Of a stretch of 36,521 bases of DNA, positions 30,001-36,000 are shown in pieces. Where the stretch lies: contig JAHHIK010000087.1 of the NCBI GenBank assembly GCA_019358935.1, positions 1-36,521 of the forward strand. The letters are read 5' to 3'. The stretch is from Tolypothrix carrinoi HA7290-LM1 (GTDB lineage Bacteria; Cyanobacteriota; Cyanobacteriia; Cyanobacteriales; Nostocaceae). The position numbers were made by a program. Numbering within the stretch: position 1 is the stretch's first letter; the number at the start of each line of letters is the position of its first letter.

Positions 30001-33000
30001 TACACATACAATCGGTAAAATGGCGATGGGTGTATAAAACATCAACCTCAATATCATAAATTTATTACTTTATTAAAAATTCAGGGTAAAAAAGCTATCG
30101 TTAAACTTCAAATGGCAGACCGGATAAATGATATCGCTTGGCAAGCTCACCTGGGTAGCGTTGCTGCGATTATTCAAGTATTGAACCAAAAATTAGCCAA
30201 TTCTGGTGTCAGAACCAGAGCTATCTTTGCTGATGGAGTCTTACAACTTCTTTGTGAGGCTCGTACAGTCGATAAACTTGAACAATCAACTCTAGTCAAG
30301 CAAATCCAGCAAATTCTCGAATCAATCGCACCGCGTAACATTCGTAGAGTTAACATCAACAGTCGAATTGTTCAAGAACAGCAATTGTTATGGTTAGAGG
30401 AAATTACCCGCGCTCCGGAAAATCATTTACTTTGGTCAGAGGAAATTATTTTAGCTCAACCAGGTATTTTACAGCAAGTAATTCAAGATTTCCAAGAGCG
30501 TAAAATCGAACAAGCAAAGCCAAATTTACCCAAGTCGCAATATTCTAGTGCTTTAGTAGCTATTAACAAAAATAAGCGCAAAAAATCCCCCAGTGGACGG
30601 ATGCTCGATACAGTGGGTTTATGCTTATTTTTATTTGTCCTTGGCTGGAGTGCTTATGTTTGGTTAGGTGGTAGATCAAATTTAACGCCACAACAAGTGC
30701 TTAAATCTTTAGCACCGACGGTAAAATCGAACGAGCCAGCTTCGACTAACTCTGAACCAGAAATACCACCTTTGGCGGCTATACCAAGTGATTCTACGCT
30801 AGATGAAGATTTGTTTGCAGCAGCCGTGAGAATTGCCAATCAAGCTTCTACAATCGGTAAAAATGCTCAGACATCAATTCAATGGTTGGATTTAGCTGCT
30901 AGGTGGCAAAGAGCCTCTGATTTAATGAGTAAAGTACCATCCAATCATAGTCGATACAAAGAAGCTCAAATTCGGACTAAGTTGTATCGAGAATATAGTG
31001 AAGCGGCACAAAAAGAGGCAGACAAGATTAAAAAAAGTCAGGGGTCAAAAGTCAAAAGTCAGAATTCTGACTCCTAAATTTTACCAGATTGACGCAACTC
31101 AAAAATTAATTTCCCCAACTACTTGACACTGCATACTACATATACTACATTAGGAATACAAGCTGATGTAGAAAAAGGAGTAAGCTTTTAGCAGTATTTG
31201 CATTGAATCTCAAATCCAAAATTTCATGTGGTAAGTAGCTCAATAGTAGAGCGCCAATTTTATCCGTAAGGGTCGAAGAATAAAGGGTTATCGCGAAAGT
31301 GTCCCCCTTAATTTGCCGGAAATGCGGGTGCAAATCCCGCTTTGCTACACCAAATTAATTAGAAATACAAAACGTGCGAATTTTCATGTGGTGGGTAGCC
31401 AAGTGGTTGAAGGCGCTAAACATCCTTGTTCACAACTTGCTTGAAAAAGCCGAGGAATTGAGGGTTATCGTAATACAAACGAGTATTCGTGGGTTCAAAT
31501 CCCGCCCCACTACACCAATTAATTTGAGATTTTAGATTTAATCTAAAATCCTTGGCTCCAAAATTTTCTATGTGGTAAGTAGCTTAATAGTAGAGCGCCA
31601 ATTTTGCCCAAAAGGGACGGAAGAATCGAGGGTTATCGCTGTTAACGAACTATCCCCTTAATTCGCCGGAGATGCGGGTGCAAATCCCGCCTTGCTACAC
31701 CAAATAATTCAAAATAAAAAATGCAAAATTTTGCATTTTCAACTCTTAACTCTTAACTCCTAACTTCTAACTTTATATGTGGCGGGTAGCTCAGTTAGGT
31801 AGAGCGCCGAAAACATCCTTTTTCACAACTTGTCTGAAAAGACCGAAGAATGAGGGTTATCGCATTTGAAGCCGGATGTCGCAGGTTCAAGTCCTGCTCC
31901 GCCACCTTTCATTTTGCCCGTAAGGGCTGGGAGATGAAGTCATGAATTATAAATTCTTTACAAAAAATAAGACAGGTACACCACAAAATAAACCTATCCC
32001 TGGACGAGAAGCAGAGATGATTCAGGGACGTAGTGGTGGCTTCATGTTTGATGCTGGCATTTGGCAGATGTTGCGTCGCTGTTTGCTAGTTGGCACGGCA
32101 CAAAGCACTTATTATGCCGGAAAGCAGGAATTAACAGAGGATTTTGTCGCGGTTTTAAAACAAGCTGTTGCGGAAAATCCCCGCCGCGTTGCCGAAGAAA
32201 TCTTGTATGCTAGCGATGGACGCGCCATCAACAACAGTGCGCCTATCCTTGCATTAGTGCTGCTATCGATGGGTGAAGCACCAGAAGCTAAAAAAGCTTT
32301 TATGGAAATCTTTCCCCAAGTTGTTCGCACCGGTAGCCACTTCTACGAATGGTTGAGTTACACTAAATCTCTGCGGGGATTTGGTAAGGTGGTACGCGAA
32401 GCTGGTAAAAATTGGCTATCTCGTGAAGATGTGAAAGCTTTAGCTTATCAGCTTTTGAAATATCAACAGCGTCAAGGCTTCACTAATCGCGATGCATTAA
32501 GATTGTTTCATGTCAAGCCACCTACAGAAGATCATCGCCAACTGTTTGAGTGGGTGGTCAAAGGTTGGGAAGAAATGCCTGTGGAAATTCCTTCGCAGGC
32601 GATCGCCCAGATTTGGTGGTATGAATGGTTAAAGCGAAATCCCAGCAAAACTCATGAAGCCATTACTCAAGGACACCTAAGCCACGAAATGGCTGCACCT
32701 GTGGGCAAAATGGACAAAGCTGCTTGGCAGCTACTTTTCTCTGAAATGCCAATTGGGGCAATGTTGCGTAACCTCGGTTCACTAACAGAACTGGGTGTTT
32801 TGCAAACTCACGAAAGTGCGAATTTGCTGCGGGTGGAAGCTGTTCTCAACAACAAAGAACATCTGCGTAAAGGACGCATCCATCCGATTGATGTTTTGAA
32901 AGCGTTGAAAACTTATCAATCTGGGGGAAAATTAGGACGCAGCCAGAAGACTTGGAACCCAGTTTCTCGGATTGTAGACATCTTAGAAAAAGCGGTTGAA

Positions 33001-36000
33001 TTGTCTTTTGATGTAGTCGAACCCACAAATAAAGTCTTCATGCACGCCGTTGACGTTTCTGGTTCAATGGGTGGTATGGTTGCGGATATGGGGCTGACTT
33101 GTTGCGAAATTGCCACAACAATGGCGCTAGTTACAGCAAAAGCTGAGAAAAACTACATGATTCGCGGCTTTGCTACCGACTTCCGCGACTTGGGTATTAC
33201 TGCCAAAGATAGTTTTGGTTCGGCTGTTCGCAAAGCTAGCAATCAAAACTTCGGTGGAACAGATGCATCTGTAGCCTATGACTGGATGATTAAGAATAAG
33301 TTTAAAGCAGATGTCGTTTGCTTTTGGACAGATTCAGAATCATGGGCTGGTTACAAGCATCCGAGTCAAGCGCTGGCTAAGTATCGGCTTCATGTGAATC
33401 CCGATGTCAAAGCGGTGTATGTCACTCTGACACCTTATCAGATTACGCTGGTAGATCCGAAAGATCCGCTCTCCTGGGATTTAGGCGGATTCGATCCGGG
33501 AATTCCTCGGATTATTCAGATGTTAGCTACGGGTGAATTGTAAGGGTTAATGGGCATTGGGCATTGGGCAATGGGCAATGGACAATGGTAATAATTCTTT
33601 CCCTTGTCCACGCCAGTCGCCGAGGGCGTTCGTGACCTCCGCACGGAGAAAAGCTCCCCTTGTCCCCACTCCCTAACCCCAGTCTTGGCGGGTTTTCCTG
33701 GTTCACAACTTACCTGAAAAGGACGAAGAACTTAGGGTTATCGGTTAAAATCTCCACCATTGTGGGGATCAGCGGGTTCAAATCCCGCACCCGCCGTTAT
33801 TTTATGATAAATATAAAGTTGCTCAAAGGCGATCGCTTTTTACCCAGATGTGCGACTATACAAACAAAGTTAGCCTCGGTAAGCGATGATGCTATTCTAT
33901 CGTTGCTAAAATAATTGCAGTGGTGGTGATTGGCAGAATATGTCAGCCAAAGATAGATTTCACGAGGCTGTAAAAACTGCACTTCAAAAAGATGGGTGGA
34001 CGATAACCGATGATCCACTGAGTATCCGTATAAGCTCTAGAACCAAACTTTATATAGATTTAGGAGCCGAAAAAATTATTGCTGCACAACGCGATCAAGA
34101 AAAAATTGCCGTTGAAGTCAAAAGTTTTTTGAGTGCTTCTACAATAGCTGAATTCCATACAGCAGTAGGACAATATATTAACTACCGCTACGCTTTGACA
34201 GACTTTGGTTATGAGCAAACTTTATATTTAGCAGTACCTTTTTACATTTATGATGATTTTTTTACACAGCCATTTGTTCAGTCGGTGATTCAACGTAGCC
34301 AAGTTAATTTACTTATTTACGATGATGAAAAAGAAGAGGTTGTGCGATGGCAAAGCTAGAAGAATATCGAGATTATATTCAGCAATTACTGACAAAATAT
34401 GCAGCGCGTGACTCTGGTGAAGATGGTGTAGAAGTGCAAACTATTTTTGACACGAAGCATGACCACTATCAGGTTTCTTATGTTGGTTGGCGCAATCGAC
34501 GGCGCGTTTTTGGTCCGGTGATGCATCTTGATATTAAGAATGGCAAAATTTGGATTCAGTGGAATGGTACTGAAGATGACATCGCGGCAAAATTAGTGGA
34601 AATGGGTGTAGCTAAGGAAGATATTGTATTAGGGTTTCACACGCCGTATGTGCGCTCCTTTACAGATTTTGCGGTGGGGTGATTTTAATCGGGTTTGGGG
34701 AGTGCGATCGCCAAATTTCATTTCTTTTGTATACTAAAAATAGATTACGTTCTCAAAGGCGAAAGGTAGTCAGTGTGCCAGCAAGAGACATCTATCATGA
34801 TAATTTTAAAAATGCACTTATCAAGGATGGCTGGATAATTACCCATGACCCTTATATGCTTAAATGGGGTTTGAAAGATTTATACATTGATTTAGGCGCA
34901 CAGAAACTTTTAGCAGCAGAAAAGCAAGAGCAAAAAATTGCCGTTGAAATTAAAAGTTTTGTTAGTCCATCTGAAGTTGAAGATTTAAAGAACGCTTAAT
35001 AGTCAATTTATTCTTTATAATGATATCCTCGCTCGCACAGAACCAAACCGCAAGCTTTATCTGGGTATCACGCGCGCTGTATTTATAGATATTTTTGAAG
35101 AGCCAATCGGTAAAATATTACTGGAAAATGAACGTGTCAGATTAATTACATTTGACTCAGAACAGGAGGCAATTATTAGATGGATATTTTAGATAAATAT
35201 CGGCAAATTATTCAAAATATTTTAGTAACCTATGTTGATATCAAGTATGCCAATGGAGACATACATAACGAAACAATTTTCGACCAGCCAACCGATAGAT
35301 ATTTAGTGATGTCATTAGGATGGCAAAGAGTAAAACGAATTCATGGTTGTTTAATTCACATCGATATTATTGATGGGAAAGTGTGGATTCAACGCGATGG
35401 AACTGAATATGGTATTGCTAATGAACTAGTGGATGCGGGTATTCCCAAAGAGCATATTGTACTTGGGTTTCATCAACCAAACGTGCGACAGCATACCGGT
35501 TTTGCTGTAGCTTGATCGCTCTCTAGCCCAGATGAATAGAATTCGCGGTTAGACAAATAGAGCTTACCTGCATGGGCTAGGTATCGGGTTTTGGGGAGTG
35601 CGATCAGTACTTAATCTTTATCATCTGACGCGTGTGTCTTTTGTAGAGCAGTTGCCAAACTAACTAAGCTTTGCCATAAGTTATGCAAAGTCTCACTTGA
35701 AACAGAGTTTTTGAGAAACCTAGCCCCCATTGCCGAATAAATAGAATTATCAAAAGTCGCCTTCTCTATTTCGGATGGTTCTTGCGCTTGCGGAACTGTG
35801 GCTGAGTTAGGGTGTGGAGGTGATTGAGCAAATATTCTTGTTAGTTCACCCAGTTCAACTTTCAATGCAACCGCTATTTTTTCAAGTGTTGCTGGCTTAG
35901 GACTAGCGGTATAGCCATTGACAATCTTACTAATCAAACTTTTATCTAGACCAGTAAACCTTACTACTGGCATTCCTCTATTTTTGTTTTTTTACATATG

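Follow-up and report, generated by a model that had tools for sequence, protein, structure and literature searches.

The locus and its RNA units

The Ro60 gene of Tolypothrix carrinoi HA7290-LM1 is preceded by a tandem array of tRNA-shaped RNAs, which raises the question of whether these are permuted YrlA-type Y RNAs or RNAs of another build. We analysed the window, the whole 36,521-nt contig JAHHIK010000087.1. With moderate confidence, we read the array as encoding four RNAs in ordinary tRNA order, each with a YrlA-motif helix in its anticodon stem, which are likely bound by Ro60 and induced by stress. The arm order, the 8-bp acceptor, the anticodon loop, ACCA with G3·U70 (units 1-3), the promoter repeats and the linkage to ro60 are seen directly in the sequence; binding and induction are predictions from them. 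The features are as follows.

31123..31151, + strand: sigma-70-type promoter, TTGACA-N17-TACATT, top site of the scan (10/12)
31133..31159, unstranded: TrcR-type direct repeats across the -10 box, ATACTACA at 31133-40 and 31142-49, predicted repressor site
31228..31352, + strand: unit 1, layout II, from sequence and fold
31388..31517, + strand: unit 2, layout I, from sequence and fold
31572..31702, + strand: unit 3, layout II, from sequence and fold
31779..31906, + strand: unit 4, layout I, from sequence and fold
31912..31933, + strand: hairpin resembling the Ro-helix cap, overlapping the ro60 ribosome-binding site, conserved across loci
31942..33543, + strand: ro60/rsr, 533 aa, Pfam TROVE and vWA_Ro60
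33687..33796, + strand: unit 5, D-armless RNA, fold z -3.5

As the preliminary description stated, four tRNA-shaped units lie in tandem directly 5' of ro60; they measure 125-131 nt, and all follow the order acceptor 5' strand, D arm, insert, T arm, acceptor 3' strand, with layout II in units 1 and 3 and layout I in units 2 and 4. Unit 1 has an 8-bp acceptor with G3·U70, A73 and an encoded CCA, a D arm, the T loop TGCAAAT, a short capped Ro hairpin (GTCGAAG at 31272-31278, with a pyrimidine partner strand on the 3' side) and an anticodon hairpin shrunk to a GAAA loop. Unit 3 resembles it, again with G3·U70, A73 and an encoded CCA, and has the anticodon loop CTGTTAA at 31639-31645. Unit 2 combines a D arm and V loop of His/Gln type with an 8-bp acceptor (G3·U70, A73, encoded CCA), a long Ro helix (cap CTT-GAAA-AAG, GCCGAGG at 31449-31455) and the 7-nt loop AATACAA at 31472-31478. 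In unit 4, the Ro helix bears the cap TCT-GAAA-AGA and GACCGAAG at 31841-31848, the loop is ATTTGAA (31864-31870), and the 8-bp acceptor has G3-C70 and C73, with CCA not encoded; the last units of arrays end in CTTT in 67/70.

Our tRNA-order model R1 scored units 1, 2 and 3 at 60, 118 and 58 bits, unit 2 itself being part of the R1 training alignment. ARAGORN called zero tRNAs in the array, and Rfam gave only two weak tRNA matches there, as previously noted (35 bits, and 37 bits for unit 3), and no YrlA match (RF02553, gathering score 69 bits).

The ro60 gene and its leader

Residues K173, R177, D184, R187 and H190 of the encoded Ro60 align with Xenopus K170, R174, D181, R184 and H187, which we take to act in Y RNA binding. 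By phmmer, the protein matches D. radiodurans Rsr (2nvo, E 4e-73). The units lie on the same strand as ro60 and less than 4 kb from it, and all 16 out-of-sample loci taken from RNA-model matches have ro60, 15 within 4 kb and one at about 5.5 kb. Of 45 genomes in the family, 22 gave a Ro60 match, two of these being weak or distant, in line with the 42 of 100 Nostocaceae genomes reported before. The earlier count of three to seven upstream units at all 14 loci examined does not hold throughout: a motif count gives 0-7 between promoter and ro60, with a mode of 3-4, and fewer than three at 14/93 loci. Most counts given here come from related Nostoc genomes and are therefore not independent, and some loci are possibly one genome fetched twice.

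The leader hairpin, with a paired 3-bp stem, a 4-nt loop and GGGAG in 100/115 loci, is a possible autoregulatory site. Together with RNA contigs of relatives that span the array into ro60 (and may include DNA), it would fit an array that acts uncut, as a long 5' leader carrying several Ro60 rings and tuning ro60 in cis, either as a sponge or through autoregulation. We consider this improbable, as the encoded ACCA and the retained acceptor stems and T loops suit tRNA processing, and as tRNA-order units on giant-virus contigs stand alone amid tRNA genes with no ro60 within 10 kb.

The Ro helix interrupts the anticodon arm

The Ro helix had been placed in the position of the anticodon arm. Instead, it interrupts the 5' strand of that arm and the anticodon loop is kept: a 7-nt loop with U33 and R37 persists, and anticodons drift between units. 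Among 251 distinct units, 180 match tRNAs in length between nt 30 and the T arm, and these carry U33 in 174 and a purine 37 in 172 cases. Pair 31:39 is formed in 173/180 (CG 98, AU 65, UA 10) and pair 28:42 in 177/180 (CG 100, UA 70); the slid control 28:43 pairs about as often (174/180), so that the case for 28:42 is one of covariation, not frequency. Inserts are 21-70 nt long, mostly 50-53 nt, and their bulged Ro helix, a feature of Y RNAs in the broad sense, is 89-96% paired. Layout II units hold two separate inserts, and the anticodon arm is wholly missing from some units. A GNCGAAG-like motif had been ascribed to each unit; the exact form GNCGAAN0-1G occurs in unit 1 and the fifth unit, and units 2-4 carry variants. 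Among the 251 distinct units, 49 have the exact form and 195 have GNCGANN0-1G. Canonical tRNAs have a 7/5 acceptor branch, an unbroken 5-bp anticodon stem and an identity that agrees with the anticodon; the units depart from them in the 8-bp acceptor, the interrupted anticodon stem, and G3·U70 combined with Gly, Pro and Phe loops.

A 3-bp stem and a 4-nt loop close the Ro helix in 175/186 units, and this cap loop is GNRA in 173/175. Such stable closure argues against a further step in which units released in tRNA order would be nicked at the cap or anticodon loop, or circularised and reopened, to yield a two-piece or permuted Ro60 ligand. Precedents for both routes exist: RNase P halves the M. 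smegmatis YrlA, the halves remaining Rsr-bound (PMC4201824), and algal permuted tRNAs mature via circles, according to passages of bioRxiv 10.1101/312249. No joint of this kind appeared in four RNA contig sets, which cannot show absence, and we give such a step little chance.

Acceptor stems favour tRNA order

The open acceptor stem, first described as 7 bp, has 8 bp, with 8/8 pairs Watson-Crick (WC) or GU in all four units, and in units 1-3 A and CCA are encoded directly after it. In 186 units of close relatives, acceptor pairs 1-8 form in 99-100%, pair 9 in 53% and pair 11 in 3%. Pairing exceeded chance, as had been reported: 93.3% of cells were paired in 30 diverse units, as compared with 81.2% after shuffling and 42-52% after sliding, and these units show two-sided changes at all 8 acceptor pairs and both basal anticodon-stem pairs.

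The supplements of Chen 2014 (PMC4201824) tabulate Nostocales and other cyanobacterial loci as permuted YrlAs spanning two neighbouring units. Each mature RNA would then begin with a unit's Ro strand and T arm, cross the spacer, which would form a long closed acceptor stem, and finish with the D arm of the following unit. Infernal matches in that register reach E 1e-30 (Table S1 of that paper), its YrlA-II alignment includes Calothrix, Stanieria and Gloeocapsa rows, and acceptor strands do pair fairly well across units (5.3/8 WC). Moreover, a tandem array is symmetric, and the tRNA-order model itself scores 53 bits across two true permuted Nonomuraea YrlAs. Nevertheless, five sequence tests and the controls agree on tRNA order, and we regard permuted mature RNAs as very improbable here. 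As the preliminary description held, acceptor strands favour their own unit: among 93 adjacent pairs, mismatches averaged 0.04 within units and 1.02 across neighbours, with at least one in 6/93 and 81/93 pairings, respectively. Where neighbouring 5' strands differ, pairing was own-only in 94 cases, next-only in 4 and both in 44. In the window itself, two of the three cross-unit pairings also reach 8/8 once GU is allowed.

Other features point the same way. The spacers are AT-rich (14-125 nt, GC 0.20), whereas in the true permuted controls a short loop closes the acceptor, and the encoded CCA sits where a tRNA would have it. D-arm and V-loop types agree within units, His/Gln-type D arms occurring together with a YAUUC V loop in 14/16 units (YAUUC in 0/235 others) and long V regions accompanying Leu-type D arms. 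Arrays begin with a D arm and end in an acceptor strand, as first noted: after inspection of 18+2 apparent exceptions, no D-armless start or spare terminal D arm was left among 110 loci. Loci with a single upstream unit (L103, L107, L487, L492) are unreadable in the permuted register, and the permuted order is recovered for the control YrlA loci of R. etli CIAT 652, Nonomuraea and Gordonia phage Cashline. The tRNA-order reading of the array is well supported by sequence comparison. Fold z-scores of the units are weak (-1.2 to -2.4), and the minimum-energy fold of unit 1 is not a cloverleaf; in the folded precursor, the probability of pairing with the own acceptor strand is 0.85 for unit 2, 0.77 for unit 4, 0.09 for unit 3 and 0.00 for unit 1.

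An alanine signature on the acceptor

Units with G3·U70 carry A73 in 111/111 cases, as compared with 39/165 other units, on both 7-bp and 8-bp stems, and in 9/9 cases of the out-of-sample set. The combination of G3·U70 and A73 is an alanine-tRNA signature, and units 1-3, with CCA, have the sequence features of an AlaRS substrate. The 8-bp units carry U2-A71, which is not the usual pair of tRNA-Ala, and no G3·U70 unit was detected at 30/110 loci. Cleavage by RNase P at 7 bp would put the signature out of register. E. coli charges 8-bp-stem tRNAs bearing G3:U70 with Ala (PMC5389517).

Mohanta 2017 (PMC5733544) describes, in the part considered here, a 'group I intron' in tRNA-Gly of Nostoc PCC 7107 and tRNA-Lys of Gloeocapsa PCC 73106, species with ro60 loci in the Chen table. 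CTTG-x-CT, AAG-x-C and GAAGAAT occur both in its 37-49-nt inserts and in the Ro helix; that part terms the inserts introns and makes no link to Ro60 or Y RNA, and the two tRNAs are very likely the same genes, taken in tRNA order. In keeping with that paper, the units could be intron-containing tRNA genes whose insert is removed, for example with RtcB ligase, to give back-up tRNAs: with introns permitted, ARAGORN reports 230 tRNAs in the 251 units, the anticodon arm is retained, rtcB is encoded in the genome, and a genuine back-up tRNA array under TrcR control is known (PMC10272220). We find this scarcely credible, because G3·U70/A73 occurs with GCC, AGG, CGG and AAA loops, and spliced products would mistranslate since acceptor identity does not follow the anticodon. 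The insert also bears the YrlA motif and, in cyanobacteria, is never far from ro60, layout II has two inserts, unit 1 lacks an anticodon loop and some units the whole arm. No group I match was found in Rfam, and a group I intron is far larger than 50-53 nt.

Promoter repeats and a proposed mechanism

A promoter of the form TTGACA-N17-TACAnT occurs at 93/114 ro60 loci. The direct repeats match the trcR operator of PMC10272220 at 14/18 positions, with the -10 box in the corresponding place. The repeat motif of PMC8421152 is exact in 56/93 promoters and within one mismatch in 85/93 (one in the window), as compared with 2 exact matches in 468 kb of control sequence. The genome also holds a candidate trcR on contig C183, an RHH-like gene with an 18/18 operator, named from this operator and an RHH match below the Pfam cut-off, not by alignment to TrcR; the repeats and this candidate are the sequence features of a TrcR regulon. 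C183 also carries a trn array that has the exact motif, and this motif was absent upstream of both rtcB genes. The TrcR regulon and trn L-array of Anabaena PCC 7120 (PMC10272220, PMC8421152) share the -10-box direct repeats and arrayed tRNA-like genes with the Ro60 array; the L-array tRNAs differ from our units in being ordinary, decoding tRNAs. Text searches of both papers found no Ro60, TROVE or Y RNA.

We propose that TrcR would probably hold the operon off until translation is impaired. RNase P, together with 3' trimming or CCA addition, would with good probability cut each unit out of a single transcript at its acceptor ends, and the AT-rich spacers would be lost. Ro60 would very probably bind the GNCGA strand of the inserted helix, the GNRA-type cap lying where the ends of other Y RNAs lie. 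Alanylation of the G3·U70/A73/CCA units by AlaRS, as for tmRNA, is a nearly balanced possibility that we rate slightly on the doubtful side. The 50-nt helix within the anticodon stem should bar the ribosome, and the product would be a non-decoding, Ro60-tethered tRNA decoy or adaptor under translational stress. Proteins that bind tRNA would meet on it an elbow, an end that is charged or can be charged, and a set of anticodon loops; a decoy role specifically is suggested only tentatively, with anticodon nucleases, the repair ligase and PNPase as candidate targets.

A wider reading, which as a whole we hold rather unlikely, would make these aminoacylated Y RNAs, in which a Ro60 module was grafted repeatedly into the anticodon stems of whole tRNAs (Gly-, Pro-, Lys-, Asn-, His/Gln- and Leu-type bodies) and an alanine acceptor was added. 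TrcR would switch on a panel of Ro60-tethered anticodon decoys in translational stress; the array would be a survivor of the ancestral state, permuted YrlA having arisen when a tandem array was re-cut, with the YrlA 'V arm' as a former anticodon arm; and giant viruses would use the same design to engage host Ro60.

Relation to known RNAs

The identity set of tmRNA is G3·U70, A73 and CCA. The array units share these on a tRNA-like RNA with tmRNA and with the allo-tRNAs, the latter inserting Ala when they have G3:U70 on an acceptor of 8 or 9 bp (PMC5389517); the array units differ in having no reading frame and an 8/5 geometry, not 8/4 or 9/3.

With YrlA (RF02553; PMC4201824, bioRxiv 10.1101/312249), the units share a same-strand ro60 neighbour, a GNCGAA-type motif, conserved D and T arms, and the GGTTAYC and D-arm-to-helix junctions. 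In YrlA the arms are permuted and the acceptor loop is closed, and there is no free CCA or, as described, anticodon loop; the array units have tRNA order, an open 8-bp acceptor, often with ACCA, a GNRA-type capped Ro helix and a 7-nt anticodon loop. Assignment to YrlA proper (RF02553) was rejected, as neither a T arm 5' of the D arm, nor an end-formed Ro helix, nor a 69-bit score was found. The view that described YrlAs are permuted holds for the true controls; these cyanobacterial loci had already been tabulated under that reading. The loci themselves are not new; their apparent tRNA-order architecture is a new Y RNA variant. D. radiodurans Yrn1 (PMC4201824) likewise has a D-like arm ahead of its T arm and is co-transcribed upstream of rsr with other small RNAs and a tRNA. 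In Yrn1, the terminal stem of the 5' and 3' ends is the Ro60 helix and the D arm is doubtful, whereas the ends of the array units pair as a tRNA acceptor stem, with the Ro helix lying inside the molecule. A Ro-binding insert is not mentioned for the b7a-tRNA (Burroughs and Aravind 2016) where bioRxiv 10.1101/312249 summarises it, and the array has no Band-7 gene next to it.

The array had also been taken as the tandem-tRNA arrangement ancestral to YrlA. In the dimeric-tRNA model, as given in passages of bioRxiv 10.1101/312249, the Ro stem is made from leftover tRNA arms; the array is not simply that ancestor, because here the tRNA is whole but for the inserted Ro helix. The array likely shows how bacterial Y RNAs grew from tRNA, the direction of descent being our inference. 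If true, it would provide a concrete intermediate, with insertion into an intact tRNA and later permutation within a tandem array. Published cyanobacterial Y RNA boundaries, drawn over two adjacent genes, would need correcting, and Ro60 would be tied to the TrcR translational-stress regulon. A general Y RNA class with free, possibly alanylated CCA ends would be predicted; Chen 2014 (PMC4201824) thought free-CCA Y RNAs unlikely to be general. Units in tRNA order also lie beside Ro60 across cyanobacteria, including three before ro60 on plasmid pAQ7 of Picosynechococcus PCC 7002, and in other bacteria.

The fifth unit downstream of ro60 is present, and it is a conserved D-armless RNA (95/115 loci) rather than the partial copy first described. 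It has a 7-bp acceptor, a Ro helix with the cap CCT-GAAA-AGG and GACGAAG at 33722-33728, a V hairpin, a T arm and a T-rich tail.

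The array and its ro60 gene

The preliminary description placed four tRNA-shaped units ahead of ro60, and the window does hold them, in the following arrangement.

31228-31906, four tRNA-shaped units directly upstream of ro60 (units 1-4: 31228-31352, 31388-31517, 31572-31702, 31779-31906)
31942-33543, ro60
33687-33796, D-armless RNA downstream of ro60 (unit 5)

The ro60 product is a protein of 533 aa with TROVE and vWA_Ro60 domains, the nearest solved structures being D. radiodurans Rsr and Xenopus Ro60. ARAGORN, run on the window, called none of the four array units, and the YrlA model RF02553 gave no match at the array locus. 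Two weak tRNA matches had been reported here; Rfam gave two such matches, interrupted by a long alignment gap around the anticodon. In the rest of the genome, our RNA model found only ordinary tRNAs of ~80 nt among the 150 of 1903 candidates scored. As for the proposed partial fifth unit, an RNA is indeed present after ro60, but it is a recurrent D-armless RNA, found in 95/115 loci, rather than a fragment. Two XisH/XisI pairs lie in tandem 3' of it (33940-35515), the second xisH apparently interrupted by a stop near 34999. Short tandem repeats elsewhere in the window (24467-24787 and 27764-28183) create repetitive pseudo-ORFs, as is typical of Nostocales intergenic DNA.

Loci compared

Close ro60 loci were the best 80 of 317; 30 further loci and 12 distant ones came from a 401-genome phylum sample in which 44 genomes matched, and 16 out-of-sample loci were chosen by RNA-model matches alone. 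The main set comprised 115 loci, mostly from Nostoc, which are not independent and possibly include a few duplicates. It contained 321 T arms with the GGTTAYC anchor, and a D arm was found for 296 of them; acceptor pairing was 7/7 in 254 of the 281 units having a single D candidate. Later counts refer to the 276 units (251 distinct) with at least 6/7 acceptor pairs, leaving 45 rows excluded, most of those inspected being false T-arm calls. A loose pattern search of metagenome and viral sequence returned mostly chance matches, with full-length units in 3 of the 79 metagenome loci searched (of 120 matches) and 5 of the 80 viral loci searched (of 119 matches). A cyanobacteria-specific pattern found one viral contig that had no RNA-model match.

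Anatomy of the units

The acceptor stem, previously given as 7 bp, is 8 bp long, all eight pairs forming in each of the four window units. Among 186 units picked regardless of acceptor, pairs 1-8 are each present in 99-100% of units, whereas pair 9 drops to 53% and pair 11 to 3%; many distant families have a 7-bp acceptor. Window units 1-3 encode A and then CCA after the acceptor; a final CCA is printed for only 6/67 ARAGORN tRNAs of the same genome.

The Ro helix had been thought to replace the anticodon arm. We found instead that the arm is kept and the helix inserted into it. Between nt 30 and the T arm, 180/251 distinct units have the spacing of a tRNA, and in these 180 the anticodon stem pairs at 27:43 (172), 28:42 (177; CG 100, UA 70), 30:40 (172) and 31:39 (173; CG 98, AU 65, UA 10); U33 is retained in 174 of them, and position 37 is a purine in 172. 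The anticodon itself varies among units (GCC, AGG, GUU, CUU, CGG, UUU, UGG, UCC and others). The insert, mostly 50-53 nt, interrupts the 5' side of the anticodon stem near nt 29; Leu-type units and one unit of L183, a metagenome locus, carry it in the anticodon loop instead. Removing the insert in silico raised ARAGORN calls from 1 to 209/251, yet shifted windows gave 187-213, so that this removal is no evidence for the insertion site.

Two layouts were distinguished. In the first (window units 2 and 4), a long helix is closed by a cap, a 3-bp stem with a GNRA-type loop, which is present in 175/186 units. In the second (window units 1 and 3), the GNCGA strand is kept and its pyrimidine partner strand lies 3' of the anticodon hairpin. 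At L001 the first detected unit, which is of the second layout, no longer has the GNCGA strand; a deletion between two GGGT repeats is the apparent cause. Units of four loci (L023, L047, L050 and L098) are broken by short repeat insertions, in three cases in the T loop, and L109 holds at least six units, produced by successive duplications of a block of two.

In window units 1-3, the third acceptor pair, numbered from the CCA end, is G·U. A73 accompanied it in 111/111 G3·U70 units, as compared with 39/165 others, counts that overstate independence since units are shared among kin. At least one G3·U70 unit occurred in 80/110 loci. The two features also coincided in 10/10 cases from other families (seven loci, of which five have 7-bp acceptors) and in 9/9 cases out of sample. 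G3:U70 is the main AlaRS determinant and functions in 8- and 9-bp acceptors, according to passages of PMC5389517, and the G3·U70 units may be charged with alanine.

tRNA order or permuted order

The register of these RNAs matters because Chen et al. 2014 (PMC4201824) already list the loci. Their second model was built to accommodate cyanobacterial RNAs with a 'longer acceptor stem', and in their rows for Calothrix, Stanieria and Gloeocapsa each RNA takes in the Ro strand and T arm of a unit, crosses the spacer and continues into the D arm of the following unit, its ends being left undetermined.

Several comparisons bear on the two registers. Over 93 adjacent pairs, acceptor mismatches averaged 0.04 within units and 1.02 across neighbours; at positions where neighbouring acceptor strands differ, pairing was own-only at 94, next-only at 4 and possible with both at 44. 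The spacers are 14-125 nt long with 20% GC. In 30 diverse units, 93.3% of cells were paired, as compared with 81.2% when shuffled and 42-52% when slid, and two-sided changes occurred at 8/8 acceptor pairs. A YAUUC V loop was found in 14/16 units with a His/Gln-type D arm and in 0/235 others; the same combination occurs in tRNA-His and tRNA-Gln of the host genome, and the concordance spans the insert. Once the exceptions had been inspected, every array was seen to open with a D arm and none to close with a spare one: the 18 first units that seemed to lack a D arm were explained by false T-arm calls, locus edges or mis-chosen D arms, and two seemingly trailing D arms came from units whose T loop carries an inserted repeat. 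Four loci (L103, L107, L487 and L492) have a single upstream unit. A classifier placed the R. etli, Nonomuraea and Gordonia phage control loci in the permuted form, their closed acceptor loops being short, and gave tRNA order for the plasmid locus of PCC 7002; Mycobacterium phage Bxz1 was classed as 'other', and three further control loci gave nothing usable.

On the other side, two of the three cross-unit pairings in the window also reach 8/8 with GU allowed, in ensemble folding only units 2 and 4 favour their own acceptor, and the folding-energy edge for tRNA order is a weak 11 kcal/mol over 680 nt. The RNA model also gives a score across a tandem pair of permuted YrlAs, so profile scores do not decide the register. 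Taken together, the acceptor, covariation, D-arm/V-loop, array-end, single-unit and control comparisons argue for tRNA order, as the preliminary description had proposed from sequence.

A search of RNA data with L054 (Nostoc flagelliforme) returned 23 runs. All of these were contigs, and none matched half of the query words. In four RNA contig sets (X1, X2, X4 and X6), contigs of relatives cover the array together with ro60, with breaks where the Ro helix is repeated. They show no RNA ends, added CCA or usable joints, and may include DNA.

Distribution

The RNA model matched 24/151 genomes of the class, in 18/81 genera. The loci chosen from RNA-model matches held ro60 in 16/16 cases, and 28/30 of their T-arm units were in tRNA order and none permuted. 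Outside oxygenic cyanobacteria, L183, a high-GC contig, has one unit with G3·U70 and A73 before ro60, and L117 has a tRNA-order unit in a tRNA array beside ro60. L116, L117, L118 and L122 carry distant Ro60 genes (30-38% identity) within arrays of 10-16 ordinary tRNA genes that also hold permuted YrlA-like RNAs.

On viral contigs, tRNA-order units stood among tRNA-Met genes in 78 of the 80 loci analysed (of 100 matches), alternating with them (L372-L451; e.g., L311:1479-1617 and L322:1479-1615). GUCCGA was present in 61/86 distinct viral inserts, and the units have a eukaryotic initiator-type T loop and the loops CUUAUAA, CUCAUAA or CUUAUGA. Many of these contigs have giant-virus bin names and eukaryote-type genes, and no Ro60 match was found in the flanks examined, up to 10 kb on each side.

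Origin and earlier readings

Permuted YrlAs share junctions with tRNA-order units, and the YrlA 'V arm' often has a 7-nt anticodon-like loop (rows of the Chen 2014 alignment; Nonomuraea, Gordonia phage). These two features suggest that a tandem tRNA-order array could yield YrlA by opening of the cap and closing of the spacer, a route unlike the dimeric-tRNA model that bioRxiv 10.1101/312249 summarises. Mechanically, the change could also run the other way; we favour tRNA order as the older form on the basis of its isotype-matched bodies.

The same genes have been read as permuted YrlA (Chen 2014, PMC4201824), and very probably the same genes, a tRNA-Gly and a tRNA-Lys that share the motifs, are described in passages of PMC5733544 as holding 'group I introns'. 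We found no account in the literature of a Y RNA in tRNA order whose Ro helix is an insertion; Burroughs and Aravind 2016 (b7a-tRNA), Sim and Wolin 2018, Sim et al. 2020, the rest of Table S1 and the supplements of bioRxiv 10.1101/312249 may bear on this. Passages of PMC12135203 and PMC7824862 and the abstract of a 2026 tRNA-mimic preprint describe no such RNA. Judged by its sequence, the array is a real feature that would work in the manner of a Y RNA and falls outside YrlA by the tests of membership.

Promoter, regulation and possible role

A TTGACA-N17-TACAnT promoter precedes the array in 93/114 loci. A repeat motif from the Anabaena trn operon (described in part of PMC8421152) lies over the -10 box exactly in 56 of these 93 promoters and with at most one mismatch in 85, as compared with two exact matches in 468 kb of control sequence. 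The trcR operator, as given in passages of PMC10272220, agrees with the window at 14/18 positions with the -10 box at the same place, and a gene of the host genome combines an 18/18 operator with a weak RHH match. The trn array of this genome carries the exact repeat motif, which is absent ahead of its two rtcB genes. These similarities suggest that the array may be under TrcR control.

The anatomy and conservation of the units and their linkage to ro60 are the established part of the following model. A TrcR-repressed transcript would be produced during translational stress. RNase P and 3' maturation would release the single units from it, and Ro60 would bind each of them at the inserted helix. 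The tRNA body, with its free, perhaps alanylated end and varied anticodon loop, would then present Ro60 to tRNA-binding proteins. Alternatively, the body might soak up anticodon nucleases, a sponge idea put forward for trn tRNAs in passages of PMC8421152. Decoding by the units is unlikely, as their acceptors and anticodons are mismatched. A cap-like hairpin lies over the ro60 ribosome-binding site in 100/115 loci (31912-31933 in the window), where autoregulation is possible.

Two other sites of the host genome were noted. On contig C183 (~4200-9700), an RHH-like gene with a perfect TrcR operator adjoins an L-array of 23 tRNA genes; the promoter of this L-array contains the exact repeat motif. 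On contig C91 (~28270-30250), odd tRNA-like genes, with ARAGORN Pyl and Ser calls and a weak YrlA-model match, follow a TTGACA promoter that has TrcR-type repeats on each strand; this is probably the other Ro-like locus mentioned in the preliminary description.
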